A DNA stretch of 50,356 nucleotides from Candidatus Micrarchaeota archaeon (GCA_964419095.1 CAYQOG010000002.1:1-50356); one strand, 5' to 3'. Shown: positions 21,931 to 49,700, numbered from the stretch's first letter. Numbers and translations are program-made. Notes: generated from the sequence alone by a model not told the origin.

Positions 21931-23148
21931 GTGCCTGCAGAAACAATCTCAGTAAAGCGCACCAACGCGGTCTACCAGAACATGCAGAATCCCTACATGC
22001 TCAAGTCCTATTACAATTTCAAGACACTGGAAAAGCTCCAGAGCAACGAGGTCTACGGCTCATCGCCTCCTGACATCTTCGTGGGAAGGTATGGATACCC
22101 TAATGTCTATGTCGGCCCTCTTGTCCCGCCGCAATGGGGTGACACCTCGATAATGAGCTCCCCGGAACGCTGGGTCGGCATGTCGATACCGCAGATTGTT
22201 GAAATGAGATCCATGCTCATAAGGGGCATGTACCGCACAAGGGTGACCAAAGCTGACAATGGAAGGATAGAGGAGATGCTCAAGGAGCTCGCCCTGGCCG
22301 ACAACTACGGGGGAGTAGAGGAGAAGTTCTCGCATAGGCCGAAATTGGGAGTGAGCCTTGATGAGAACAGCCAGCCCTACGGGCCGAGCGCGAAGATGGT
22401 GGACATGAACCTTGGCAATGTCAAGGCAAACAAGCAGATAGAGAAGGCGTACCATGACACGGCGATGCCCGCAAAGGACGCGATAATAGAGCTCTACGGG
22501 AAAGGCGTCTTCGTATCGAAAATACAGAAGTCGCTATCAGCAGGAATACTCGGCATGTCAAAGAACAGGAAGTTCGTCCCGACCAGATGGAGCATAACTG
22601 CCGTAGATGATACGCTGGGCAAGCACAGGCTCAAGGAGGTCAAGCAGTATGAGGCAATCGATTCTGTGAAAGTGTTCTACAGCACAGCGCTGGACAACAG
22701 GTGGGCGGTGGTCATGTTGCCGGGCTCATGGGAATACGAACTGGTAGAGGCGTGGTATCCTAACACCACGTGGAATCAGGAGAGCCCCGACATAGCTATC
22801 TATTCTTCCTATGAGCCTTTCGAGGGAAGGACGAAGTACGCTGAGATAGGCGGCTGCTACTATGCAGCAAGGCTTGCATCATCAGAGCTTCTCGAAAAGA
22901 TAAAAGGCCAGGCAAAAGTGGTCATTCTCAGGGAGGCGCATCCCGGGTACATAATGCCTGTAGGAGTATGGAACGTGAGGGAGCATGTAAGGGCAACGCT
23001 GAAAACCGAACCGATAAACTTCGATAATCTTCATCAAGCATTGATGTTCGTGTCAGGGAAGATGGACATACCTGTAAGATCCTGGATAAAGAACAGCACC
23101 CTTCTCAGGAAGGCGCTGTATCAGAAATCGCTTGCATCCTCTGGTTAA
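21931..23148 (+). CDS. Nre-family (DUF650/DUF651) archaeal DNA-repair-associated protein
   Basis: 405 aa. GSSPPDIFVGRYGYPNVYVGPLVPP is the hallmark Nre N-domain motif. GTG start. Confidence 0.78.
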   Translation: MPAETISVKRTNAVYQNMQNPYMLKSYYNFKTLEKLQSNEVYGSSPPDIFVGRYGYPNVYVGPLVPPQWGDTSIMSSPERWVGMSIPQIVEMRSMLIRGMYRTRVTKADNGRIEEMLKELALADNYGGVEEKFSHRPKLGVSLDENSQPYGPSAKMVDMNLGNVKANKQIEKAYHDTAMPAKDAIIELYGKGVFVSKIQKSLSAGILGMSKNRKFVPTRWSITAVDDTLGKHRLKEVKQYEAIDSVKVFYSTALDNRWAVVMLPGSWEYELVEAWYPNTTWNQESPDIAIYSSYEPFEGRTKYAEIGGCYYAARLASSELLEKIKGQAKVVILREAHPGYIMPVGVWNVREHVRATLKTEPINFDNLHQALMFVSGKMDIPVRSWIKNSTLLRKALYQKSLASSG

Positions 23149-23586
23149 TTATGATTTGAATGGGTTTGTAACCTTTATCCCAGGTACTCCGCCAAAATCC
23201 CTCTCGTTCTCTGTGATGATCTCTGTTATTCCGTTCTCCTTCATCGTTTCGACTATGACGGAATCCCAAAAGCGGATTCCGTAGGCTCTGCATGTGGATA
23301 GGGCATTTTTTACCGTGTCGGGACCATAGCTTATTTTTGTCCAGTGCTTGGAGTCGGTTAGGTCTTTTACTGTGAGTTCAGCCCCTGCTATACCTATATC
23401 CACTTTATTGACCATGATATTTGAGAATTCGCCAAGGACCTGGTTGGATATCACCCCCGCTATCTCAGTGTCGAACACGCCTTGGACCAGATCTAGACAG
23501 ACTCTGCGCTTTTCGGACTGGTTGTCCTCATATGCATATACAAGTATGTTCGTATCGAAGAAGATTTTATCTCTCATGAGCTTCAT
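23149..23586 (-). CDS. vapC: PIN-domain toxin (VapC family)
   Basis: 145 aa. IFFDTNILVYAYED at the N-terminus carries the first PIN acidic residue, with later acidic residues present. It overlaps the upstream antitoxin by 20 nt. Confidence 0.85.
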   Translation of the reverse strand: MKLMRDKIFFDTNILVYAYEDNQSEKRRVCLDLVQGVFDTEIAGVISNQVLGEFSNIMVNKVDIGIAGAELTVKDLTDSKHWTKISYGPDTVKNALSTCRAYGIRFWDSVIVETMKENGITEIITENERDFGGVPGIKVTNPFKS

Positions 23587-23815
23587 CCCTGTTGAATTTC
23601 CAGTGTTTCTTGAACTTAAAGCCTTTGCGCAGTCGCGCTATGGCCTCCTTCCGTATGCGCTCCTGCTCCTCGTCGTGAGACATAACTGCTATCATGTCCT
23701 TGTATGCCTTGCTCAGGGCACCCTTCCTCTTACCGTACTTGGACTCGGCATACTTCCTGAAGAGCCTTTCGCTCTCCTCGTCCACGCTTATAGTTATGGT
23801 CTTTGACATGTTCAT
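23567..23815 (-). CDS. vapB: antitoxin (VapB-like, ribbon-helix-helix type)
   Basis: 82 aa. The MSKTITISVDEESERLFRKYA beta-strand/helix start is typical of RHH antitoxins. GGAGGTG lies 7 nt upstream of the ATG, and a TATA (CATTTAAATAT on the minus strand) lies upstream. Confidence 0.7.
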   Translation of the reverse strand: MNMSKTITISVDEESERLFRKYAESKYGKRKGALSKAYKDMIAVMSHDEEQERIRKEAIARLRKGFKFKKHWKFNRDEAHER

Positions 23816-23844
23816 GTATTTACACCTCCATATATTTAAATGTT

Positions 23845-26058
23845 TTATTTTGTAAGTATATCCAACGACAGGGTGCGCTCTCTTCCTCCTGCAATCTTGA
23901 ATACCTTAGTTTCGCGCTTCTTCTCTCCTATGACTAGCATTCTGTATTCCCTATCCTGCATCAAGCCTTCCACAATCACCACTCCGTCCTTATCCGTCCT
24001 GCCCTTGAAGACTCTCTCACCAACATAGAGTAGTTCAATTGCAGCATCAGTTTTTGGCTTTTCCTCCTGATCGAGGATCTTTATTCTAGTGGTTGGCTGC
24101 TTTATAGGAGAAGGTTGCTCATCGTTCTTCGGTTCATCAGCTGCCTCTAATTCATAATGGAGTGCGCTCACGAAGACAGAGCTATTTGGTATTCTCACCC
24201 TTCCCTCTATCGTTACGTAGCTGACCGCACAGACTCCCTGGCGCATGCTCTTGAGCCTCTCCACTGCCAATTTACCTTCCTCTTCCCTGAATATCAGGTC
24301 TGCGCATGCGCACTTTGCCGAATCGGCGCTCTGCCTGAAATAGAACTTGTTCTGGCAGAGCCTCCTTATCCCAAGGCTGATATCCGTTGCGCTGTGCGCT
24401 ATCAGCATAAGGCCAACTCCCTTCTTCCTGAAGTCCTGTATCCTTTGCCCCAGGTCAAGCGTTGCCGCAGATTCCTCATCGCTGTCGAGCATCAGTTGCG
24501 CTTCCTCCGCACAGATAAGCATCCTCAACTCATCGTTTCCCTTCTCGTCAAGCATCTCCGCGAAGCTGTATATCTGGTTGAGTATCAGTGCATAGAAAAA
24601 GGGCTTCATGCTGTTGCTTACTCTTGAGAGGTCGAAGATGACTCCCTGCTCAATGAGCTCTGAGAAATCAATTCCGTCAGGATAAGCGAACTGCGGTTTC
24701 ATGAGCATAAGCCGCAGGTTCTGCAATGCAGCCATGGTGTTCTCACCGTGTTTCGTGAACTTCACGCCCGCATTGCTTCTCTTTCCATGCTGTTCTATTA
24801 CCGCGTTCTCAATCTCATCATAGACATATGCGGGATCCGGAGCAGCCGTGGAGCTGTAGACTCTGCCAAATGCAGACAGGAGGCACTTCTCCATAGTCTT
24901 CGTGTAGGGCCCTGCGCCTGATGCATACGACACAAGCATCGCAAGATTCTCGTAGAACCTCTCTATCTTTGTGCCGGAGTCGCACTTGAAGAAGTTTATG
25001 CGTACATGGTTCTCGTAGACGCGCACTACCTTCAGCCCCATCGAATTTCCGATGGCATTCCATTCCCCCGTAGGAGAGATCACTACTATTCCACTCTTCT
25101 GCTTTGCGGCAAGCTGCTTCACTATCCTCATTGCCGTCATGGTCTTTCCTGTTCCCGGCAGTCCCGATATTATCGTGCCAAGGTTGAGCACAGCCCTATC
25201 AAGGCAGAGGCTCTCACCGGTTCCTGTCAATGAGCCGTGGAGATACTCGCCTATGTGTATATCACCGTCGGTTCCGTGATATTGGGTCATTATCGCCTGC
25301 CTCCTCTCTATCCTGCCGGAGAAAACAAGAAAACCTGCAGCATTCGCGTGTGAAAAAGGAAGTGAATAATGACCCATTGCAAAGGCATATGCCTGCTCCG
25401 AGTCTTTCAGTGATATCTTTCTCTCTTCAAGCGTGAAGAGTCTCGACTTTATGTAATCGTGCAGCCTGGCATCCCCGTCAATAACCAGGCTCACGTTGTA
25501 CGCTGCCCCGTTCTTCATAGATGCGTCGTTGAGAGTCTCAAGAAGCGAGAGTAGCATTCTCCTTTCATCCGATTCATAGAATAGTTCCATTTGCATAGAA
25601 TCGGATGTGCCGATGCTGCTCCTGCTCGAAGCGCTCTTCGTGAGTCTTATCCCCTTGCTGCTCGCCATTCCCTCTATCCTGCTCCTTACGCTCTCCACAT
25701 GCTCCCTGCCTGCCGGGGTGAAAAAGACAATGAGCCTTGAATCTGTTCCTCTCAGTATCATGTAAAGGTCGCTGAGCGCCCCCTGTATCTTTTTCTCTTT
25801 GTCTAACTGCGGCTCCGCATATCCTACGAAATAGGAACTAAATCGCATCGCTATTGCCTGCTCCGTTTCCTTAAAATCTATCCCTGCAAGCCTCGCCTTG
25901 AGCCTCGCTATCGCATCAGAATCCTCCGTCACGAGCAATGTCCTCATTTCCTTGAGGTCATGGCAGATCATGAAAGGAGAGCCAAGCATAGCGTCTACAA
26001 AGCCCTTGAGGTCAAGTTCCTCGGGAAGGGAAACTATCTCAAAAGAATGCAGCATCAT
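23845..26058 (-). CDS. HerA/VirB4-clade (DUF87-like) P-loop ATPase with an unknown N-domain and a C-terminal beta-sandwich-like module
   Basis: 737 aa. Motifs found:
- Walker A: GLPGTGKT.
- VVISPTGEW (compare HerA DPHGEY).
- Walker B: LICAEEAQ (compare EEAH).
- GLMLIAHSATDIS.
- C-terminal KGRTDKDGVVIVEGLMQDREYRMLVIG, resembling carboxypeptidase-regulatory-like domains.
GAGGTGAT SD lies upstream. Confidence 0.85.
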   Translation of the reverse strand: MMLHSFEIVSLPEELDLKGFVDAMLGSPFMICHDLKEMRTLLVTEDSDAIARLKARLAGIDFKETEQAIAMRFSSYFVGYAEPQLDKEKKIQGALSDLYMILRGTDSRLIVFFTPAGREHVESVRSRIEGMASSKGIRLTKSASSRSSIGTSDSMQMELFYESDERRMLLSLLETLNDASMKNGAAYNVSLVIDGDARLHDYIKSRLFTLEERKISLKDSEQAYAFAMGHYSLPFSHANAAGFLVFSGRIERRQAIMTQYHGTDGDIHIGEYLHGSLTGTGESLCLDRAVLNLGTIISGLPGTGKTMTAMRIVKQLAAKQKSGIVVISPTGEWNAIGNSMGLKVVRVYENHVRINFFKCDSGTKIERFYENLAMLVSYASGAGPYTKTMEKCLLSAFGRVYSSTAAPDPAYVYDEIENAVIEQHGKRSNAGVKFTKHGENTMAALQNLRLMLMKPQFAYPDGIDFSELIEQGVIFDLSRVSNSMKPFFYALILNQIYSFAEMLDEKGNDELRMLICAEEAQLMLDSDEESAATLDLGQRIQDFRKKGVGLMLIAHSATDISLGIRRLCQNKFYFRQSADSAKCACADLIFREEEGKLAVERLKSMRQGVCAVSYVTIEGRVRIPNSSVFVSALHYELEAADEPKNDEQPSPIKQPTTRIKILDQEEKPKTDAAIELLYVGERVFKGRTDKDGVVIVEGLMQDREYRMLVIGEKKRETKVFKIAGGRERTLSLDILTK

Positions 26059-26062
26059 CCAA

Positions 26063-26341
26063 TCACCTCAACGCTAAAATAACAAGCAGAAACACGACCA
26101 GATTCGCCATGGCGAGAACGTAGACCTGCCTTATGTCGGCTTTGGGCATACTACTGCTGTATCTTGAGCCTATGTACATTACGATCGCAGAAAAGAGCAT
26201 CGCCGGAATCGCCAAAGCGACAATTCCAAGAACAAAAGAGACAACTGCAATCGAAGAGAATACCCCAAGTGTTGCAAATAAAATCAAAAGGTACCTTCCG
26301 CTTCTTCCGTGTCCCTCGTATATGCTCCTTCCTACATTCAT
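26063..26341 (-). CDS. small membrane protein (92 aa, 2-3 TM)
   Basis: MNVGRSIYEGHGRSGRYLLILFATLGVFSSIAVVSFVLGIVALAIPAMLFSAIVMYIG...VYVLAMANLVVFLLVILALR. GGTGGTGAT SD lies upstream. Its start overlaps the upstream stop (ATGA), and its stop is 4 nt before the ATPase start. Confidence 0.6.
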   Translation of the reverse strand: MNVGRSIYEGHGRSGRYLLILFATLGVFSSIAVVSFVLGIVALAIPAMLFSAIVMYIGSRYSSSMPKADIRQVYVLAMANLVVFLLVILALR

Positions 26342-26529
26342 CCTATCACCACCTTCACTGAAAAAGCTATGAGCAAGAGGAGGAGCAGGGCTGCGCATCG
26401 CACAACTATCGCGTCTACGGGCCTGCCAGGCCTGAAGACCCTTAGCAATATTACCGCGTCGATGAGTATGACCGCCGCCATTGCGCTTGCCTCTATAACT
26501 GCTATTGCCAAGCTGGATACAAAGTCCAT
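26338..26529 (-). CDS. small membrane protein (63 aa, 2 TM)
   Basis: MDFVSSLAIAVIEASAMAAVILIDAVILLRVFRPGRPVDAIVVRCAALLLLLLIAFSVKVVIG has two hydrophobic helices separated by a basic loop. AAGGAG SD lies 5 nt upstream of the ATG. Confidence 0.55.
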   Translation of the reverse strand: MDFVSSLAIAVIEASAMAAVILIDAVILLRVFRPGRPVDAIVVRCAALLLLLLIAFSVKVVIG

Positions 26530-26627
26530 TCCGACTCCTTCCCCGGCTGTGCTGGCTGCACCAAGAATGAGAACAATTAATATGCGTTGGAAGAATATAT
26601 AGCCTTTTCGTTTTATTATTATTCAAG

Positions 26628-28304
26628 TTGATCAACATTCCAGCCAAAACGAATCTCTGTCCTGGCTGCGGCCATCCATACTCGGCGCACAAAGATGGAA
26701 AATGCGGCGTAGTCTTTCCAAACGGACAGCGATGCGCGTGCCAGAGCTCCAAGCCCGAGAAAGGGATGGCTAAAAAACCGATGGACGCCTTCCTTGCCGC
26801 AGCGCTCATAGTGACGGTGATATTCGCAATCTACTGGATGGCGTTTGCTGCTAATGCATACAACACATTCCACGAGTACGACGACCTTGGCATATTTGCG
26901 CACAACATGTACTTGGATATCAACTATCCGGGCATAATGGGAGGTGCGCTCCAATTCCTCATATTTGGCAACCACATAGCGCCTGATCAGTTGCTTGTGC
27001 TCCCATTTTTCTACTTGGACCAGTCCGCGCTCACGCTCCTTGCGGTGCAGGTGGCAGTTCTCTCGGCAGCAGGCCTTGCGGTCTTCATAACTGCAAGGAG
27101 ACTGTTGGGAAACCAGAAAGTCGCGTTTATGCTCTTCCTCGCGTTCATACTGAATCCCGGCGTTTGGGGCATGCTTGTCTACGATTACCACACCGAGGCT
27201 TTCATAATACTGTTCTATGTCATGGCGTTCTACTTCTTCATGACGCTCAACAAGAAGCTCTTCATAGTCTCGCTCCTGCTCCTTCTGGGAACCATAGAAC
27301 AGGGACCGTTCCTCGGCGCCACGCTCGGGATGGGGATGCTTTTCTATTCACTCCTCTACGCGGAAAAGGACGCGAACAGGAAGCCGAGGATAATGCTTGC
27401 AGCCTCTGGAATAGGCATCTCGCTGCTTGTCTTCGTGATCTATAATATCATATCTATTACGCTCCTTGGAGCATATCCGACTCCTGCCTTTGCGCAGCTG
27501 CCGCCATACCTGCGCGTTGACGCGCCGATAGGCAGCGCAGTTTCGCAACTTGCGTCGGGCGGGCATGCGCTCGCTGCAATACCATACCTGCTTGTGAACC
27601 CTTACTCCCTCTACGGGATCACAGTTGCCCTGCTGCTCTTCGGCATAGCAGTATTCTTTGATCCTCTCCTTACGCTGATAATGGCCGCTCCCTATCTCTA
27701 CGAGGCGTATGTTGTGCAGAACCACTACTTCCTCGTGGTCTTCAACCAGTACTACGGATTTGTGATAGGCTGCGTATTCGCAGGCGCGGTCATCGGCCTG
27801 ATGAGGGCGCAGAAGAAGCAGGGCATCCTCGGAAGGCTCATCAGCAGGCGCGATAATGGCGGCCGAACGCTCACATACCTTGTCATGGGCTCGATAGGGA
27901 TAGTGACCGTCATACTGCTGGTCCTGTATCCGACGTTCGTGGTCTCGAAGAACACGAACAACCTGACGCAGGACTTCCTCTTCCAGAAAGGCACGGTGAC
28001 GCAGGCTGACTCTGCCCAGATAGACTCAATGCTCGCGCTGATTCCAAAGAACGCCAGCCTTATAGCGCCCTTTTTCGTTTCTTCGCACGTCGCTGACAGG
28101 GAATACTTCGAGGACACTGGATACACTATGGTGCAGTGGTACTTCACTCCACAGTACCTTCTCGTGGACACCAATCTCAATGTGAGCCTTAACGCCTATG
28201 TTGGAGTGGCACAGCTAGTGAACTTCAGCAAGAATAATACGTATGCTTACTATGGCCGCAACGGCAGCGCCATACTCTTCAAGTACGTACCCCAGGGCAG
28301 CTAA
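26628..28304 (+). CDS. DUF2079-family polytopic membrane protein, possibly with an N-terminal Cys-rich extension
   Basis: NTFHEYDDLGIFAHNMY...GNHIAPDQLLVLPFFY resembles the DUF2079 signature (F.LGIF.Q..W...G.HFSPIL), and many TM segments follow. The start is uncertain: TTG at 26628 would include CPGCGHPYSAHKDGKCGVVFPNGQRCAC, and ATG at 26766 would not. Confidence 0.75.
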   Translation: MINIPAKTNLCPGCGHPYSAHKDGKCGVVFPNGQRCACQSSKPEKGMAKKPMDAFLAAALIVTVIFAIYWMAFAANAYNTFHEYDDLGIFAHNMYLDINYPGIMGGALQFLIFGNHIAPDQLLVLPFFYLDQSALTLLAVQVAVLSAAGLAVFITARRLLGNQKVAFMLFLAFILNPGVWGMLVYDYHTEAFIILFYVMAFYFFMTLNKKLFIVSLLLLLGTIEQGPFLGATLGMGMLFYSLLYAEKDANRKPRIMLAASGIGISLLVFVIYNIISITLLGAYPTPAFAQLPPYLRVDAPIGSAVSQLASGGHALAAIPYLLVNPYSLYGITVALLLFGIAVFFDPLLTLIMAAPYLYEAYVVQNHYFLVVFNQYYGFVIGCVFAGAVIGLMRAQKKQGILGRLISRRDNGGRTLTYLVMGSIGIVTVILLVLYPTFVVSKNTNNLTQDFLFQKGTVTQADSAQIDSMLALIPKNASLIAPFFVSSHVADREYFEDTGYTMVQWYFTPQYLLVDTNLNVSLNAYVGVAQLVNFSKNNTYAYYGRNGSAILFKYVPQGS

Positions 28305-43803: not shown

Positions 43804-46773
43804 ATGAAAAGTCTAAACGCGAAGAGAATAGCCGCTGTAGCGGCCAGTTTGGTAATGGGTCTTGCAGTTGCAGGAGCGGGCGTCACATTTGGTAACGTAC
43901 CGATAATAAACAACCTGGGACAGCCGGTAGTGCAGATCGTAGTCGGTCATGCAGCATGGCCTGAGGACGGTGTAACTGCGGCAAACATTGCGGCAGTCAT
44001 CGGAAACCTTGCGCTAACTACGCAGAACGTCACTGCAACCGTATCCAACGCCGGCTCGGTATTGAGCTGCGGCGGAACGCCTACGTGCACGATAACGAAC
44101 CAGCAGGTCTGGCTAGGAGAGAAGGGACTGTCAGCCCCATCGGGATCATATGGATTCACAGCGCTGATAGGATCAGTTCTCAACAGGGCAGTCCAATTGA
44201 ACGCACCTCAATATACTAAGTCGTTGCAGACATCTTCAGCGCAATACGCATACCCGGAGACGAGCTCATTGACAGCATCACCTGCTGCAAGCCCGTACTC
44301 GGCTGCAGGAGGATTCTCAAGCGGCGGTGTGCCTACATCTGCTTCAGTAGTATATAACTATAATGGAGGCGGAGCATCATTCACCAAGTTCGGAAACGGC
44401 GGAAGCGACAACATCTTCGAGATAACAAACTCGCAGTTGCCAGCATTGCAGAGCAACTCCGGCGGCAATGGCGAAACAGACTCGCTCTGGCTGACAGGCT
44501 TCCCTGTATTCAACCAGCAGTCAGGCGTGAACAACTTCCAGCTGCTTGACGTGGGCGGCGCATACCAGGTAACGTTCTCAAAGCCTATACAGAACACGAC
44601 TAGCTCGAATTCTGTTAACATAAACGTACCAATAAACCTATTGGGAACGAACTGGACAATAGTCAATGCAACAGGAAAGCCGACAGTAGTAACAAGCCAG
44701 GCTGTCGAGAACGGCGGATTCCTATGGCTGGCCTCGTCACTGACTCCACTCAAGACGGTCTACGTGGGACAGAACGTCTCAAACTCGACTGTGGGCGGAT
44801 TCAACGTACAGCTGACAGACTTGGGACAGCCCAATTCGAACGGATTGTCAAACGCAGCCATAAACGTCTACTACAATGGCGCATTGACAAACACGACGCA
44901 GATGGCACCGTACTCGACGCAGAAGTTCAATGTCACGGGACACATACTCTATGTGCACGTGAACCAGACATTCGCAGGTTTGTACGCATACCAGAAGTGG
45001 GCCAAGATGCAGCTCTACTCCAACCTGGTCTTTGTAAAGGACAACTCGCCTTTCAACCAGACTGGAGACAAGGGATGGCAGGTCAACTTGCTCTGGACAA
45101 ACACATCTTCAAGCGGAAAGGGAGATGCGCTCCAAAGCATAGTGATCTACAACCTCTCGCCTACGACATTGTCGCCTGGACAGAGTTTCGTATTCATACC
45201 AAACCCTGCCAGATACAAAGTGACCTTCGTGGGAGACACGCTTGGTAACAACTACGACCCTGTTACGTTTGCTTCGAGCTTCGCATCAGGCGAGCAGTAC
45301 ACCGACAACCTCGGTACTGGAGCATCATACGCGGGATCGCAGGGACCATCAGTTACAAACGTAACTGAACCGGCTCAGCTGCTCACTGTGACAAGCCAGA
45401 TACCTAACGCATTCACATATGCGGGTACCTCAAGCAGCAGCGTGGTCTATGACCTTACGCCATACCTCTTCAACCAGGTAGCAAACTCTGTTGGAGCAGG
45501 AGGCAACGCGAACGAAGTAGTCCTTGCTTACACTGTCAACGGAGTAGCAGGCTCATACATAACCCAAACGCACCAACTGCAAGTGCAGGTACAGGGAGCT
45601 GCAAGCAACGGCGGAGCGGTGCAGTCTGAATCGGTGACATTCACGTCGAATGCACAGGCGCAGACGCTGCCTACGGCATTGTACAACGTTACGAGCATAA
45701 AGCTGATACCGACAGGACCTCTGCCTCCGGGATCGCTGACATTGGCAGTGCAGGGCCCAACAGCCGCTGGAAACGTACTCGTTACCGCAAACAACCTTGC
45801 TACGCTGACAAACGCGGCAGGACCTACTGTGCTGTACTCGGTTTCAGGCAAGTCATACCCATTCGAGGAGCTTACCTCAGGAAACTCGGTCAACTACAAC
45901 CAGCCGGGACAGGCGTCGCAGCAGTTCTCGATATCGTCGACTTCAGGCGCGCCTTCTCCAGGAACGGGAGCAGGGCAGTACTTCACGTACACCGTCAACG
46001 AGCTTGCCGTAGCGACTAACAGCCTTGCAACGGACTCGCTAAGCTTCGGTATCTTCAACAACACGGGTGGAGTGACCTCACAGCCGCTCTTCCAGTTGAA
46101 CTACACGGCAACAGGAGCGCAGCACAACAACGTCTCGTACACCAACTCGAGCGGCGGATCAGCATTCGCCGTCAGGGCAGGATTCAGGACGGAGCGCGGC
46201 AGCTCAGTTGCATCGGTAGGACCGACAACGGATACCTTCAACTTGGCCAAGACCGTAGACACGCTGCAATTCGTGGCAGGGCCTGCAACAACGTCGTCCA
46301 ACACCGCACTCTCAACGACTACGAACTATGGTCCATACACCGTAGGCCAGCAGACCAACATCGCCAACGTGACGATAGCACAGGTTAACGCAACCTGCAC
46401 GTTCTCGAAGACCACTTGCACAGTGGTTGGAGCGAACGCGCTCGTAGCAACACCTTCTGTCTCGCAGGCAGTGGTCTCAAGCCACCTGAACACGGTGACC
46501 ACGCCAATCGCAGTGCTCGACGTCAATGCAAACAACGCTTCATCGCTCATAGTAGTGGGAAGCGCGTACGTGAACTCTGTCGCAGGACAGATATTCGCGA
46601 ACAACCCTCAGTTTGCATCGAGCTTCGACAATGGCGGAGCAAGCGGGCCTAACGCGGTAACAGTGCAGGCATTCGGGAACAAGATACTGGTCGCGGGATA
46701 CACGGCAAACCAGACCGTGACTGCAGGAAACCAGTTCATAACCCAACTCCTCGCTGCTGCGGGTACGAAGTAA
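43804..46773 (+). CDS. large secreted surface (S-layer-type) glycoprotein, no membrane anchor
   Basis: 989 aa with Sec-type signal MKSLNAKRIAAVAASLVMGLAVAGAG. It is strongly rich in Thr/Ser/Asn/Gly/Val, has dozens of N-x-S/T sequons and very few charged residues, and lacks a C-terminal TM. It has a long upstream region, a TATA (TTTATAAG) and a strong terminator. Confidence 0.78.
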   Translation: MKSLNAKRIAAVAASLVMGLAVAGAGVTFGNVPIINNLGQPVVQIVVGHAAWPEDGVTAANIAAVIGNLALTTQNVTATVSNAGSVLSCGGTPTCTITNQQVWLGEKGLSAPSGSYGFTALIGSVLNRAVQLNAPQYTKSLQTSSAQYAYPETSSLTASPAASPYSAAGGFSSGGVPTSASVVYNYNGGGASFTKFGNGGSDNIFEITNSQLPALQSNSGGNGETDSLWLTGFPVFNQQSGVNNFQLLDVGGAYQVTFSKPIQNTTSSNSVNINVPINLLGTNWTIVNATGKPTVVTSQAVENGGFLWLASSLTPLKTVYVGQNVSNSTVGGFNVQLTDLGQPNSNGLSNAAINVYYNGALTNTTQMAPYSTQKFNVTGHILYVHVNQTFAGLYAYQKWAKMQLYSNLVFVKDNSPFNQTGDKGWQVNLLWTNTSSSGKGDALQSIVIYNLSPTTLSPGQSFVFIPNPARYKVTFVGDTLGNNYDPVTFASSFASGEQYTDNLGTGASYAGSQGPSVTNVTEPAQLLTVTSQIPNAFTYAGTSSSSVVYDLTPYLFNQVANSVGAGGNANEVVLAYTVNGVAGSYITQTHQLQVQVQGAASNGGAVQSESVTFTSNAQAQTLPTALYNVTSIKLIPTGPLPPGSLTLAVQGPTAAGNVLVTANNLATLTNAAGPTVLYSVSGKSYPFEELTSGNSVNYNQPGQASQQFSISSTSGAPSPGTGAGQYFTYTVNELAVATNSLATDSLSFGIFNNTGGVTSQPLFQLNYTATGAQHNNVSYTNSSGGSAFAVRAGFRTERGSSVASVGPTTDTFNLAKTVDTLQFVAGPATTSSNTALSTTTNYGPYTVGQQTNIANVTIAQVNATCTFSKTTCTVVGANALVATPSVSQAVVSSHLNTVTTPIAVLDVNANNASSLIVVGSAYVNSVAGQIFANNPQFASSFDNGGASGPNAVTVQAFGNKILVAGYTANQTVTAGNQFITQLLAAAGTK

Positions 46774-46966: not shown

Positions 46967-49090
46967 ATGCTAAAATCGGCGACAATAGCGTCACTCGTAT
47001 TCGCAATCATGCTCGCAGGCACGGCAAACGCTGCATCTAACAGCATCGTCACGCTGCTGCAGAACTACTCCGTGCCAACCTCCCTGATAAACAGCCTCAG
47101 CCAGGTCAACATAACCTACAACGGCACGAATTACGCGGCCCTCTACGGCAGCGGAGGGGCGCTCAACTTCGTGGTCAACATAAAGGCAGGTACCTTTGTG
47201 CTGAGCCAGAATACGATCTTCTCGATAATACGCAATTACACTGTGCAGAACAGCTACGGCAAGTCGAACCTGAGCGCAGTGGCGGCTTCAATGCACAGCT
47301 ACATGGCTACCGCATCGGCACCGCTCGCAGACTGCGTGGCGGAATCTGGCCTCGCCAACCCCGGCGCATCGTGCACAGAGGCCAACTTCTGCCAGGCGTG
47401 CAAGACCGTCTCATACTGCAACAAGGTGCTCAACGAAGTGGGAGGGCCGCAGTCTCCTGTGGGATACGGGTTCGTCAACTTCGACAGCAACTACACGCAC
47501 CTCAATGCCAATCTCAGCAGCTTCTTCAACGCCATAAATTCAGTGACCCCGGGCAACATCAATACCTCGTTCTCGCTCATCAATTCCTCATTCCAGAACA
47601 TCTCCAGGATAACGCAGAAGATATGGCAGAATCCGATCTTCCCTGCCACTGGAAACACCACCGCAGACCAGGTCTCCAAATGCGTAGGCTTCGGCGCATC
47701 AACATCGAACACCGCGCTCTCGGGAGCTCCATGGTACTGCAACTCCGTTGAATTCTGCCCGTACCTCACTGTCAGGGACAGCCTGAACCAGCCTACTTAC
47801 CGCGGCGATGGATTCAACTACACCGTTCTCAATGAGATAAGCGCGATGATCAGCACGTCTGCGGCGCTGCCATTCAGCAATTCACAGATAGAATCGATAG
47901 CGGCAAACGCAAACACGACGACAAGCCAGTACATAGCGCCGCAGGTCACGAAGCAGAGGTCATCCGCGCTCAACACCATCCTCGACACATCGCTCTCCGG
48001 ATACAACACAACAGTCTATGCATCGAATGTGCTGCTTACTCATATAAACAACGCCTCTTTTGCAAGCGCGCTTGCCGCGCTGAAGAGCAATTATTCCATC
48101 CTGACAACACAATACCTCAGCATAAACATAACCAGGCAGGCCGTGATAGTGGCGAACCAGCTCTCGTCTCTATCATCATCGTACAAGAGGACAAACGCCT
48201 CTTATTCGGCGCTTGTGGCCGAGTCACAGAACAACACGGGCACCATAGTCGTTCTCCAGCTCGACGGCAATTCGGGCAACGCTGCGCTCAGCAGTCTCGC
48301 CTTCAGGGAACTCAGGATCAATGCCGGCCTATCCGGCAAGGTCTCAAACACGATATCCGTGAAGGTGCAGCTCGATTCGGTTAAATCGGGACTGAGCACC
48401 ATAGGCTCAGGCGAGAATCCTGCGGTATCGCTTTCAAGGTCACTGGGAGGATCTGCAGCTAGGTCCATAAACCCGAGCATAAGCCTTCCTTACATTGCAG
48501 CTGTGGCAATTTCTCCGTTCACTGCCTCGATACCCGCGATAATAATAGGCATTGTGGGGTTGGTAGCGGTATTGATCATCTACATACTCTCGAACAGGAA
48601 GAAGCAGGCTACCATAGGCAGCCAGAAGCAGAAGCATTGGCTGGGCCGCAAGACGCTTGCGCTCATCGCGATTGTCCTGGTACTCTACATGGTCATTTCA
48701 GTAGCACTCTCATTCGGCGACAACGGCAGCGCTCCAATAAGCGCCTTCAATTCCGCGCTCTCCTCGTCGCAGGATGTTGTTGTGGCGCTCAACGGCACGC
48801 AGACAAACGGCATGCTCTCATGCTATTCCCAGATACAAACCAAGCTCAAGGGACTGGGCAAGAGCATACTCAATGTCCAGATGTCCGGAGGCAAGTGCAC
48901 CGTCTCAAATACCACATTGACCACTGACGAGTGCATGAACAGCTATGCTGCAAGGAACATCCCCGTCATAATGCTTACAAACTCATCATCAAGCGGCATA
49001 ACGGCATACTCCTTCTACGGCACTGTGCTCCAGGAGAGCGGCAATTCGAGCACACTGGCAAAATGCACTGCGGCGCAGGTAATAGGTTAA
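46967..49090 (+). CDS. secreted, membrane-anchored glycoprotein (candidate S-layer anchor/partner)
   Basis: 707 aa. It has the signal MLKSATIASLVFAIMLAGTANA, a ~500 aa sequon-rich ectodomain, and TM helices IPAIIIGIVGLVAVLIIYIL and LALIAIVLVLYMVISVALSF. A 123-aa, 4-Cys C-terminal domain follows. AAGGAGTGAT SD and a TATA (CATTTAAATAAG) lie upstream. Confidence 0.75.
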   Translation: MLKSATIASLVFAIMLAGTANAASNSIVTLLQNYSVPTSLINSLSQVNITYNGTNYAALYGSGGALNFVVNIKAGTFVLSQNTIFSIIRNYTVQNSYGKSNLSAVAASMHSYMATASAPLADCVAESGLANPGASCTEANFCQACKTVSYCNKVLNEVGGPQSPVGYGFVNFDSNYTHLNANLSSFFNAINSVTPGNINTSFSLINSSFQNISRITQKIWQNPIFPATGNTTADQVSKCVGFGASTSNTALSGAPWYCNSVEFCPYLTVRDSLNQPTYRGDGFNYTVLNEISAMISTSAALPFSNSQIESIAANANTTTSQYIAPQVTKQRSSALNTILDTSLSGYNTTVYASNVLLTHINNASFASALAALKSNYSILTTQYLSINITRQAVIVANQLSSLSSSYKRTNASYSALVAESQNNTGTIVVLQLDGNSGNAALSSLAFRELRINAGLSGKVSNTISVKVQLDSVKSGLSTIGSGENPAVSLSRSLGGSAARSINPSISLPYIAAVAISPFTASIPAIIIGIVGLVAVLIIYILSNRKKQATIGSQKQKHWLGRKTLALIAIVLVLYMVISVALSFGDNGSAPISAFNSALSSSQDVVVALNGTQTNGMLSCYSQIQTKLKGLGKSILNVQMSGGKCTVSNTTLTTDECMNSYAARNIPVIMLTNSSSSGITAYSFYGTVLQESGNSSTLAKCTAAQVIG

Positions 49091-49094
49091 TAGC

Positions 49095-49700
49095 ATGGCA
49101 GAAACTAAGTCAAAAAAGCCAAAGGCAGAAGCAAAGGCAAATCCAAATTCTCCAAAGCCGGCAAGGCAGGAGCATGCCGAGAGGCCGGAAGCAAAGGAAT
49201 CCTCTGAAAGGGAATCAAAGCAGAGTCCTGTATACCTTGCAGTTGGAATAATCGCGGTACTGGCAATAATCGTGGCAGCGGTATTCTACTTCCTCGTGCC
49301 CGGAGTGGCGGGAGTGCCCTTTGCCACATTCAAGTCAAATTTCCAGGCCGCTCCGCGGGTCGCGCTTGCGATAACATACCTCAATGAAAGCCAGTATGTG
49401 GCAGAGGTCCCCTGCTATACCACTATGCTCGAGATAATCGCCAGGACGAGGAACGCGAGCACCATAGACTTTTTGCTGCTTAACCAGACAAAGTGCGAGT
49501 ACTCTCCCACAGGCCTGGGATCCGCGGCCAGTTTCACGACGGCAAATGCGAGCTCCTGCATACAGATAGCGAACAACGAGCCGAGCATCTTCATGAACTA
49601 CAGCGCTACCAATTACACCAAGGTCGCGCAGGACCATCTCTACATAGGAGCAGACTTCAACTACCTGGCAAGCTGCCCTATAGCCGCAGAGTTCGGCTGA
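49095..49700 (+). CDS. type II membrane protein with a 4-Cys ectodomain related to the C-terminus of the preceding protein
   Basis: 201 aa. It has a Lys/Glu/Pro-rich N-tail, the TM helix VYLAVGIIAVLAIIVAAVFYFLV, and an ectodomain with Cys spacing and flanking residues alignable to 48719-49087. It starts 4 nt after the upstream stop. Confidence 0.65.
   Translation: MAETKSKKPKAEAKANPNSPKPARQEHAERPEAKESSERESKQSPVYLAVGIIAVLAIIVAAVFYFLVPGVAGVPFATFKSNFQAAPRVALAITYLNESQYVAEVPCYTTMLEIIARTRNASTIDFLLLNQTKCEYSPTGLGSAASFTTANASSCIQIANNEPSIFMNYSATNYTKVAQDHLYIGADFNYLASCPIAAEFG

Follow-up and report, generated by a model that had tools for sequence, protein, structure and literature searches.

A translationally coupled operon of Micrarchaeota encoding two small membrane proteins and a VirB4-fold ATPase: a candidate module of a type IV secretion-derived translocation system

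Machines derived from secretion systems of type IV (T4SSs) are already known in archaea, in the form of the Ced system, the Ted system and the conjugative plasmids. The Ced system of the Sulfolobales and Desulfurococcales (CedA, CedA1, CedA2, CedB and CedD; PMC11868833, PMC9905601, PMC11823120) is chromosomal and "domesticated", and it combines two paralogous VirB4-related ATPases, CedB and CedD, with small proteins of two transmembrane (TM) helices, of which CedA1 is a VirB2-like pilin (PMC11868833, PMC9905601). Both ATPases are needed for DNA import, and each carries an N-terminal TM domain of its own (PMC11868833). The Ted system of the Thermoproteales (TedA, TedB and TedC; PMC9905601) is also chromosomal and consists of a polytopic protein, a VirB4-like ATPase and a VirB2-like pilin with a signal peptide. 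Among bacteria, the ultra-small, host-attached Patescibacteria (candidate phyla radiation, CPR) have a widely conserved chromosomal T4SS of mating-pair-formation class FATA (MPF-FATA) ancestry, for which a role in uptake from the host, and not in plasmid transfer, has been proposed and whose genes are reported to be essential for the epibiotic lifestyle (PMC12102498). Here we describe a three-gene operon, referred to below as the trio, in a 50,356-nucleotide (nt) stretch of DNA from Candidatus Micrarchaeota archaeon (GCA_964419095.1 CAYQOG010000002.1:1-50356; the window). It encodes two small membrane proteins and a large P-loop ATPase, and we compare it with these systems and with HerA-type helicases.

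The trio consists of three co-directional open reading frames (ORFs) arranged head to tail on the minus strand: a gene for a 63-amino-acid (aa) membrane protein (26338-26529), a gene for a 92-aa membrane protein (26063-26341, with its ATG at 26341) and a gene for a 737-aa VirB4-fold, CedD-like P-loop ATPase (23845-26058). The stop codon of the first gene and the start codon of the second share the sequence ATGA at 26338-26341, and the stop codon of the second (26063-26065) falls 4 nt short of the ATG ATG at 26058 with which the ATPase gene begins. A purine-rich match to GGAGGUGAUC stands 3-5 nt ahead of each of the three starts, namely the Shine-Dalgarno (SD) sequence AAGGAG at 26535-26540, GGTGGTGAT at 26345-26353 and the SD-like GAGGTGAT at 26062-26069, which contains the stop codon of the 92-aa gene. 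Both the ORF list and our reading of the sequence thus bear out a preliminary description of the locus, which had reported the three ORFs and their positions, the ATGA overlap, the 4-nt gap and an SD motif at each start. The frame of the 92-aa gene is open for 156 codons further 5', across the 63-aa gene, giving a 248-aa ORF (26063-26809, minus strand). The homologues of the 92-aa protein are 82-103 aa long, which led us to reject this ORF as the real product of the gene and to regard it as an artefact of the frame being open upstream; ORF callers that take the first start return the spurious 248-aa protein and lose the 63-aa gene.

The ATPase core (residues 266-635; 24154-25263, minus strand) is supported by invariant columns in an alignment of 43 homologues and by structural matches. 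It contains a Walker A motif, GLPGTGKT (25141-25164, minus strand), a Walker B motif with the catalytic glutamate, LICAEEAQ (24496-24519, minus strand), and an FRKKG motif that carries R544. G299, P301, G302, G304, K305, E518, E519, R544 and K545 are invariant in all 43 homologues, confirming the first two motifs, which the preliminary description had listed, and the core as a whole is of VirB4/HerA type, with an FtsK-HerA P-loop that has Walker A, Walker B/catalytic glutamate and an arginine finger. Pfam DUF87 ("Helicase HerA central domain") matches the window protein with 29.2 bits, above its gathering score of 23.2. An AlphaFold2 model of the whole ATPase, built on the 43-homologue alignment, has a predicted local distance difference test score (pLDDT) of 87; the protein has no hydrophobic segment, and the model is entirely soluble with no membrane segment of its own. 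When the full-length model was compared with the PDB by Foldseek, the best matches were to the full-length TrwK/VirB4 of plasmid R388 (E 1e-14), next came HerA of S. solfataricus (4d2i; E 2e-13; fourth-best), and then DndH (7es4) and the C-terminal domain of VirB4 (4ag5; TMt 0.62).

Ahead of the core lies an alpha/beta domain (residues 1-265; 25264-26058, minus strand) with a disordered loop at residues 137-162. Some 290 N-terminal residues had been thought to carry nothing that could be placed, which was not borne out, as about 265 residues match the N-terminal domain of TrwK/VirB4, and only that. Modelled alone, residues 1-265 gave a pLDDT of 87.7, and the top 14 PDB matches of this model were all TrwK/VirB4 of R388 (E 2e-4 to 4e-3, TM-score 0.33-0.46, probability 0.80-1.0); the next match was unrelated (E 0.02, probability 0.38), and no HAS-barrel of the HerA kind was found among the PDB matches. 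The model indicates that these ~265 residues are a reduced VirB4-type N-terminal domain, with kinship at the level of the fold only. Taken domain by domain, then, the structural comparison leads from the N-terminal region to VirB4 and from the core to VirB4/HerA, and does not describe a canonical HerA.

The same picture emerges from NCBIfam profiles run over the 43 members of the family. CedD (NF053655) matches 36 of them (best E 3e-12), the VirB4-like CD1110 profile 29 and the mycoplasma VirB4 profile 16, while the VirB4 family model TIGR00929 matches two and the repair HerA profile (NF040819) a single member. The curated VirB4 cut-offs (TIGR00929, NF045971 and similar) are not reached, the best score being 28.9 bits vs 325 for CD1110, and neither is the equivalog level of CedD, for which the window protein scores 31 bits vs a cut-off of 600 and aligns over residues 463-561 only. 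By profile, the ATPases form a family of their own, closest to CedD and to VirB4-like conjugation ATPases. The best single NCBIfam match, common to 24 of the 43 members, is NF033849 "serine-rich protein" (residues 258-402 vs positions 725-881 of 1163), which points to a bacterial protein family with a similar P-loop region.

The ATPase ends in a seven-stranded beta-sandwich of prealbumin, CarboxypepD_reg or MG-like type (residues 656-737; 23848-24093, minus strand), as read from the secondary structure of the AlphaFold2 model. Its Pfam matches are weak but recurrent (bMG3 in 11 of 25 members, CarboxypepD_reg in six and SpaA in two), and it matches the pilin/CnaB-type structure 3phs in the PDB (E 0.009) and a phage protein with a CarboxypepD_reg-like domain in BFVD (E 1.7e-4). 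Model and matches together support the prealbumin- or carboxypeptidase-regulatory-like module suggested at the outset.

An exhaustive profile search of 1.84 billion representative proteins returned 107 clusters at E <= 1e-30, which marks the family as sharply bounded. About 80 of these are near full-length at E < 1e-180; then comes a gap, followed by a handful of relatives of 815-1052 aa (P0174-P0190) that have the N-terminal and ATPase domains in common and differ in their C-termini. All informative source names are Micrarchaeota or "Marsarchaeota" except one, "Candidatus Aquilonibacter sp.", which is probably a mis-binned metagenome-assembled genome (MAG), and the names of the homologues suggest that the window, too, comes from a member of the Micrarchaeota (DPANN). 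Existing annotations of the homologues read "hypothetical protein", "ATP-binding protein" or "DUF87". No relative of the family was found in IMG/VR, and PHROG gave no meaningful matches. The related loci examined below comprise 56 from an alignment-based metagenome scan, and a single-protein scan of genome contigs gave three close relatives.

Kyte-Doolittle windows show two hydrophobic helices in the 63-aa protein, linked by the basic loop RVFRPGRPVD; two hydrophobic helices with a short basic loop are the topology of the VirB2/TrbC/CedA1 pilins. The 92-aa protein has a 45-residue hydrophobic stretch, taken as a two-helix hairpin, and a C-terminal helix, together with a short basic N-terminus with a conserved Tyr, a basic loop after the hairpin and a conserved Asn in the C-terminal helix. 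Its gene, directly upstream of the ATPase gene and translationally coupled to it, occupies the position of VirB3, without a Pfam VirB3 match. VirB3 is often fused to VirB4. A small-gene pair of the same topology, often with the same 4-nt overlap, stands ahead of the ATPase gene in ~30 of 43 related loci, as counted where there is enough upstream sequence; the ATPases of these loci are 35-63% identical to that of the window. The homologues at these positions are 48-75 aa and 82-103 aa long, respectively, and iterated hidden Markov model (HMM) searches connect the small proteins of the window to those of the reference locus, L002. Sequence conservation is low, with a mean column identity of ~25%. 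Despite this, the ratio of nonsynonymous to synonymous substitution rates (dN/dS), at 0.11-0.53 over seven informative pairs (0.11-0.52 for the 63-aa and 0.18-0.53 for the 92-aa protein), indicates that the small ORFs are real coding genes, fast-evolving but under purifying selection. Hydropathy therefore agrees with their first reading as hydrophobic proteins of membrane type, and they are both conserved and selected.

In L002, whose ATPase is 44% identical to that of the window, the trio ends a co-directional operon of nine genes that overlap or abut and encode, in order, proteins of 126, 329, 244, 377, 228, 204, 61, 94 and 741 aa. The same six upstream families (L002 983-5501: a pilin, a polytopic protein, a 2-TM protein, a CedB/VirB4-like ATPase and two more) are present in the same order in 22-24 loci; the three-gene order, whose conservation the preliminary description had proposed to check, is found as pair plus ATPase in ~30 of 43 loci and within the whole operon in 22-24. 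In the 126-aa family, two hydrophobic helices flanking a basic loop come after a signal peptide; Pfam T4SS_pilin matches 9 of 15 members (best E 2.5e-5) and TrbC/VirB2 matches 8 of 15. The polytopic 329-aa family lacks any Pfam domain and stands in the position of VirB6/CedA/TedA, and the 244-aa protein has two TM helices. The 377-aa protein scores above the gathering scores of AAA_10, DUF87, P-loop_TraG and TrwB_AAD_bind, and its best NCBIfam matches are CedB (E 1.6e-11), TraC and VirB4. A possible C-terminal winged helix-turn-helix is seen in the 228-aa protein and a single TM helix in the 204-aa protein. Four of the six upstream families belong to no Pfam or NCBIfam family, and PDB sequence profile searches with the pilin-like and polytopic families gave nothing meaningful.

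Several candidate variants of this arrangement were discarded. The 244-aa family was considered as a split VirB4 N-terminal domain, and hhalign against the ATPase family found no similarity. In L011 the 244-aa and 377-aa genes look fused, but this is an artefact of an open frame, and the two lie in different frames; a seemingly split arrangement in one MAG (VNF06_00535, VNF06_03405) is not evidence, as the contig ends inside the operon; and P0261, considered as a module of the same MAG, comes from an unrelated assembly.

A distant relative of 1052 aa, P0190 (E 5e-56), lies at the end of the gene order T4SS_pilin, 517 aa, 314 aa, 890-aa TraC/VirB4, 114-aa small protein, P0190. Here again, then, a member of the ATPase family is the second ATPase in a gene set of conjugation type and comes after small proteins. 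This locus also holds a divergent T2SSE/T2SSF pair, and another longer relative (L065) adjoins flavodoxin, histone and a restriction-modification-like region. A rough neighbour-joining tree shows the nine-gene state dispersed across the family as a whole, and this arrangement looks ancestral. The trio stands alone in the window and in L001, L005, L006, L007, L009 and L044, of which the window, L001, L005, L006 and L007 form one trio-only clade; since this clade is nested within the nine-gene family, the separation of the trio is derived. The trio amounts to no more than the final third of the ancestral system, and its commonest context is a T4SS-like operon in which, as the gene families suggest, a VirB2-type pilin and a CedB/VirB4-like ATPase are linked ancestrally to it.

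Because of the fold and profiles of the ATPase, the operon with a TrbC/VirB2 pilin and a CedB-like ATPase, the context of P0190 and the conserved, coupled small genes, we propose that Micrarchaeota encode on their chromosome an envelope translocation system of T4SS descent (Ced/Ted-like) and that the trio is its distal module, and we put the probability of this reading at roughly 0.62. The preliminary description had seen here a HerA/VirB4-clade translocase with Ced-like or minimal-conjugation logic, and the fold, the profiles and the relatives' operon support it in this. We envisage an ATPase hexamer that would be docked at the membrane, on its cytoplasmic face, by the 92-aa and 63-aa proteins; these would stand in for VirB3 or for the N-terminal TM domains of CedB/CedD. 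The ATPase would act as a second, CedD-like motor, powering pilin extraction and/or substrate translocation; if Ced, Ted and conjugation are a guide, the substrate would most likely be DNA. A partner or the substrate may be recruited by the beta-sandwich, which lies at the end that faces the cytoplasm. In the window clade, the trio would have been separated from the pilin/channel/CedB-like module and be driven by a conserved promoter-like element of its own, described below.

A number of results weigh against this proposal. The N-terminal domain has modest TM-scores (0.33-0.46) and is ~130 residues shorter than that of VirB4, and all CedD and VirB4 profile matches are partial, at ~30-45 bits vs cut-offs of 325-650. 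Neither Pfam nor hhalign detected similarity of the small proteins to VirB2/TrbC, to VirB3 or to the operon's own pilin family: in the 63-aa family, none of 23 members matches PF18895 (T4SS_pilin) or PF04956 (TrbC), and hhalign against the 126-aa pilin family gives a probability of 0.8%, while the 92-aa family has no recurring match and no VirB3 match in Pfam at E up to 10. Pfam searches at the same threshold also returned no recurring family for the 63-aa proteins. Thus, of the CedA1/A2-like logic of small 2-TM proteins plus ATPase that had been suggested, the gene logic stands, and homology to CedA1/A2, VirB2 or VirB3 could not be shown. Nor are the small partners universal, because L008 (5173-5742) and L042 (5279-5780) keep the nine-gene order with ~100 nt between the 204-aa gene and the ATPase gene, which leaves no room for two small genes, and L004 and L018 (upstream of 6001/9983) have the ATPase without the small genes and without the upstream module. 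Nothing beyond position and topology links the 329-aa family to VirB6/CedA. Genes for a relaxase, for ParA/VirC1 or for recombination were not seen in the operon. HMM searches found none of the six upstream families within the 50-kb window, and the system of the window clade may be incomplete or work differently. The function and the substrate are assigned from homology and gene context.

The likeness to Ced lies in the small two-helix membrane proteins, the polytopic channel protein and the two VirB4-related ATPases of a chromosomal, "domesticated" system, the 377-aa operon ATPase matching CedB best and the 737-aa family matching CedD most often. The two nevertheless differ in several respects: there is no significant full-length similarity and all matches are far below equivalog cut-offs, and CedB (NF041017) and CedD have TM helices of their own, whereas the Micrarchaeota ATPase is soluble, with its TM parts encoded by separate genes, and has the extra C-terminal beta-sandwich. 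The pilin of the relatives resembles TedC in bearing a signal peptide, the host phylum belongs to the DPANN, and the window clade is without the other genes locally. With Ted, the Micrarchaeota operon shares the signal-peptide VirB2-like pilin, the polytopic protein, the VirB4-like ATPase and the chromosomal location, and the Ted genes, in which the pilin gene directly precedes the other two, have the order of its first genes; this likeness is one of gene order. HerA, ParA and Rad50 are neighbours in Ted loci (PMC9905601) and absent here, and for Ted a second VirB4-like ATPase whose TM partners are split off has not been described.

The VirB2-VirB3-VirB4 core of bacterial T4SSs (for example TrwL/TrwM/TrwK of R388; PDB 7o41, 7o43 and 8rtd) resembles the trio in the order small 2-TM protein, small TM protein, large ATPase, in the VirB4-type N-terminal domain followed by a P-loop C-terminal domain, and in its tight translational coupling. 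Identity to this core is only ~8-10%, however; besides its shortened N-terminal domain and its beta-sandwich, the Micrarchaeota ATPase has small partners without detectable VirB2/VirB3 homology, and VirB1, VirB5, VirB7-B11 and VirD4 are lacking. The Patescibacteria T4SS (PMC12102498) is similar in being conjugation-type, in having VirB2-like pilins and in belonging to ultra-small, host-attached organisms, but it is bacterial, its accessory genes differ and its VirB4 is readily recognised by standard HMMs, whereas the Micrarchaeota proteins are annotated as hypothetical or ATP-binding only. HerA-NurA and the HerA-based defence systems (PDB 4d2i, 9x1m, 8wiv and 8zit) have an FtsK-HerA P-loop core in which the Walker and arginine-finger motifs are the same, and a hexamer is expected in both cases; in contrast to them, the Micrarchaeota ATPase has no HAS-barrel N-domain and no nuclease or effector partner, and is accompanied by membrane proteins instead.

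In the window, the trio is surrounded by housekeeping genes (TruD, GGGP synthase, NFACT, RNase Z-like, GluRS, FKBP and an S-layer-like protein). An element resembling a transcription factor B recognition element (BRE) and TATA box, GAAAAGGCTATATATT (26594-26609, minus strand), lies ~64 nt upstream of its first start codon. Comparison of upstream regions showed that the core of this element, GAAA(A/G)G-N-TATATATT, is invariant in all five loci of the window clade, whereas the flanks diverge. This fits an archaeal BRE/TATA promoter driving an independent transcription unit, a function suggested by the archaeal consensus. A second conserved block (ATTGTTCTCTTTCTAGGTGC-like) lies between this element and the first start codon. 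FKBP, the trio, a 405-aa gene, Nudix and Xaa-Pro aminopeptidase are syntenic between the window and L006/L007. The 405-aa ORF (21931-23148, plus strand) is convergent with the trio/vapBC block and conserved beside the ATPase in L006 and L007, and a gene for a 558-aa DUF2079 polytopic membrane protein, possibly glycosyltransferase-like (26628-28304, plus strand), is divergent from the trio and lies between FKBP and the trio in the window only, FKBP directly preceding the trio in L006/L007.

As had been reported, a vapBC pair follows the ATPase gene after 29 nt: a vapB-like gene (23567-23815, minus strand), an 82-aa ORF for which the antitoxin family is weakly indicated, overlaps by 20 nt a vapC/PIN gene (23149-23586, minus strand; PIN 36.3 bits, gathering score 23.6, E 1e-8). 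We regard the pair as a neighbour and not as part of the system. The 29-nt spacer (23816-23844) contains a perfect TATA-like TTTAAATATA followed by GGAGGTG, and vapBC may have its own promoter. The pair is present only in the window and L001, and in L006 and L007 the next syntenic gene abuts the ATPase gene; with synteny otherwise conserved, vapBC is best explained as a later, lineage-specific insertion and gives no sign of a mobile origin. The accessory or mobile ancestry initially proposed for the operon is thus not supported, given the conserved synteny, the phylum-wide spread of the gene and the lack of a relative in IMG/VR, and the trio is chromosomal and vertically inherited in the window clade. 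Elsewhere in the window, a 989-aa protein with Pfam S_layer_C (43804-46773, plus strand; E 5.7e-13) is probably the S-layer protein of the organism; its gene is followed by two ORFs without Pfam match (46967-49090 and 49095-49700).

Several other explanations have to be weighed against a T4SS-derived translocation system. The trio might be an autonomous minimal translocase, either an FtsK-like segregation pump acting at division or a self-sufficient five-helix import channel made by the two small proteins, with no pilus or T4SS channel. Its isolation among housekeeping genes in the window, its solitary state in six further loci and the conserved promoter of the window clade all speak for this, as does the number of ATPase homologue clusters at 90% identity, ~204 vs ~115 for the 329-aa polytopic family, which suggests that many genomes keep the ATPase without the channel gene. 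These counts come from a word-filtered search, however, and are compatible with, but not proof of, some genomes keeping the trio only; MAGs do not cover whole genomes, and the remaining genes could be encoded at another place in the genome. As the ancestral and commonest context is a T4SS-like operon, and the N-terminal domain is of VirB4 and not of FtsK type, with neither FtsK gamma nor DNA-binding domains, we consider autonomy unlikely, though worth bearing in mind. VirB4 is the ATPase required for pilus biogenesis in T4SSs, and a TrbC/VirB2-type pilin heads the ancestral operon, so that the ATPase could instead be a pilus-biogenesis motor only, a pilin dislocase for an adhesive or host-contact filament of the TrbC-like pilin (and perhaps also the 63-aa protein) with no macromolecular substrate. 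The operon yielded neither a relaxase nor a coupling protein (VirD4) nor any gene for DNA processing, and Micrarchaeota are attached symbionts (PMC8975820, PMC8784108). Against this, the two VirB4-related ATPases mirror CedB and CedD, which are both required for DNA import (PMC11868833), recognisable relaxases are missing from archaeal conjugative plasmids too (PMC12857230), and the window clade keeps the ATPase without an adjacent pilin gene; a role confined to pilus assembly seems to us quite unlikely.

The remaining explanations take the P-loop core or the vapBC pair as their starting point. The best PDB sequence match of the ATPase is the SIR2-HerA ATPase 8wiv (E 1.5e-4) and PADLOC HerA models match the ATPase domain (best 2.8e-11), which, with vapBC 29 nt downstream, would suit a HerA-type anti-virus defence or toxin-antitoxin-linked module. 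These matches are limited to the generic P-loop core, though, and the gene lists examined show no effector next to the ATPase gene, be it Sir2, DUF4297, a nuclease or another. Membrane partners and a VirB4-type N-terminal domain do not fit such a module, and the gene is syntenic and phylum-wide rather than patchy, with vapBC absent in L006 and L007, which makes this explanation very unlikely and largely refutes it. A further possibility is a virus or plasmid remnant, that is, the packaging or conjugation ATPase of an integrated element: the FtsK-HerA superfamily does include viral packaging ATPases, the top BFVD matches are VirB4-like proteins annotated in Bacillus phages and a toxin-antitoxin pair is adjacent, but neither IMG/VR nor PHROG yields a meaningful relative, there are no integrase or viral hallmark genes, and the chromosomal synteny is conserved across the clade at 55-63% identity, so that we hold a remnant to be highly improbable. 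A canonical HerA end-resection helicase working with NurA, Mre11 and Rad50, finally, would account for the DUF87 score above threshold and for S. solfataricus HerA as the fourth-best structural match; it is refuted, with next to no probability left, by the missing HAS-barrel, by an N-terminal domain that matches VirB4 only and by the single NF040819 match among the 43 members. Its partners here are membrane proteins, and no NurA, Mre11 or Rad50 gene is adjacent in the gene lists and Pfam scans of the window and ~10 related loci (in the remaining loci the screen was confined to the families of the operon itself), a scope within which the preliminary description was right that no NurA-type nuclease is nearby.

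If the trio belongs to a T4SS-derived translocation system, a further speculation, in our view itself an unlikely one, is that the nine-gene system is the long-sought conduit by which these DPANN ectosymbionts obtain DNA, nucleotides or other macromolecules from Thermoplasmatales hosts, and that it has been pared down in the window clade to a self-sufficient three-protein translocon made of a VirB4-fold hexamer and the five TM helices of the small proteins. Such a translocon would, if real, be the smallest conjugation-type machine known.

In the searchable literature we found no such system described for Micrarchaeota or other DPANN, in agreement with the initial impression that the module was undescribed for an archaeon of this type, although the coverage is incomplete and an earlier description is possible. 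The key Micrarchaeota genome and cultivation papers make no mention of secretion, VirB, HerA or pili, and in the accessible part of a 2025 T4SS review the archaeal coverage is of conjugative plasmids only. We see the finding as a highly divergent form of the archaeal T4SS-derived (Ced/Ted-like) systems; it is of note for its DPANN context and for a VirB4-type motor with a split anchor and a beta-sandwich. As a structural variant, this would be a VirB4-type motor whose membrane anchor is encoded by separate mini-genes and whose cytoplasmic end bears a prealbumin-like domain.

The DPANN have reduced genomes and depend on contact with their hosts, and their exchange machinery is largely unknown; the system described here could bear on their exchange of DNA or other material. 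A machine derived from conjugation and encoded on the chromosomes of Micrarchaeota throughout the phylum would parallel the Patescibacteria T4SS (PMC12102498), which is the closest parallel, and would, if true, extend the "domesticated conjugation" systems of the Ced/Ted type from Crenarchaeota to DPANN. Co-cultures in which the genes can be studied exist for Ca. Micrarchaeum harzensis and for strain ARM-1. In the meantime, ~200 proteins now listed as "hypothetical" or "ATP-binding", together with their easily missed small neighbours, gain a context.

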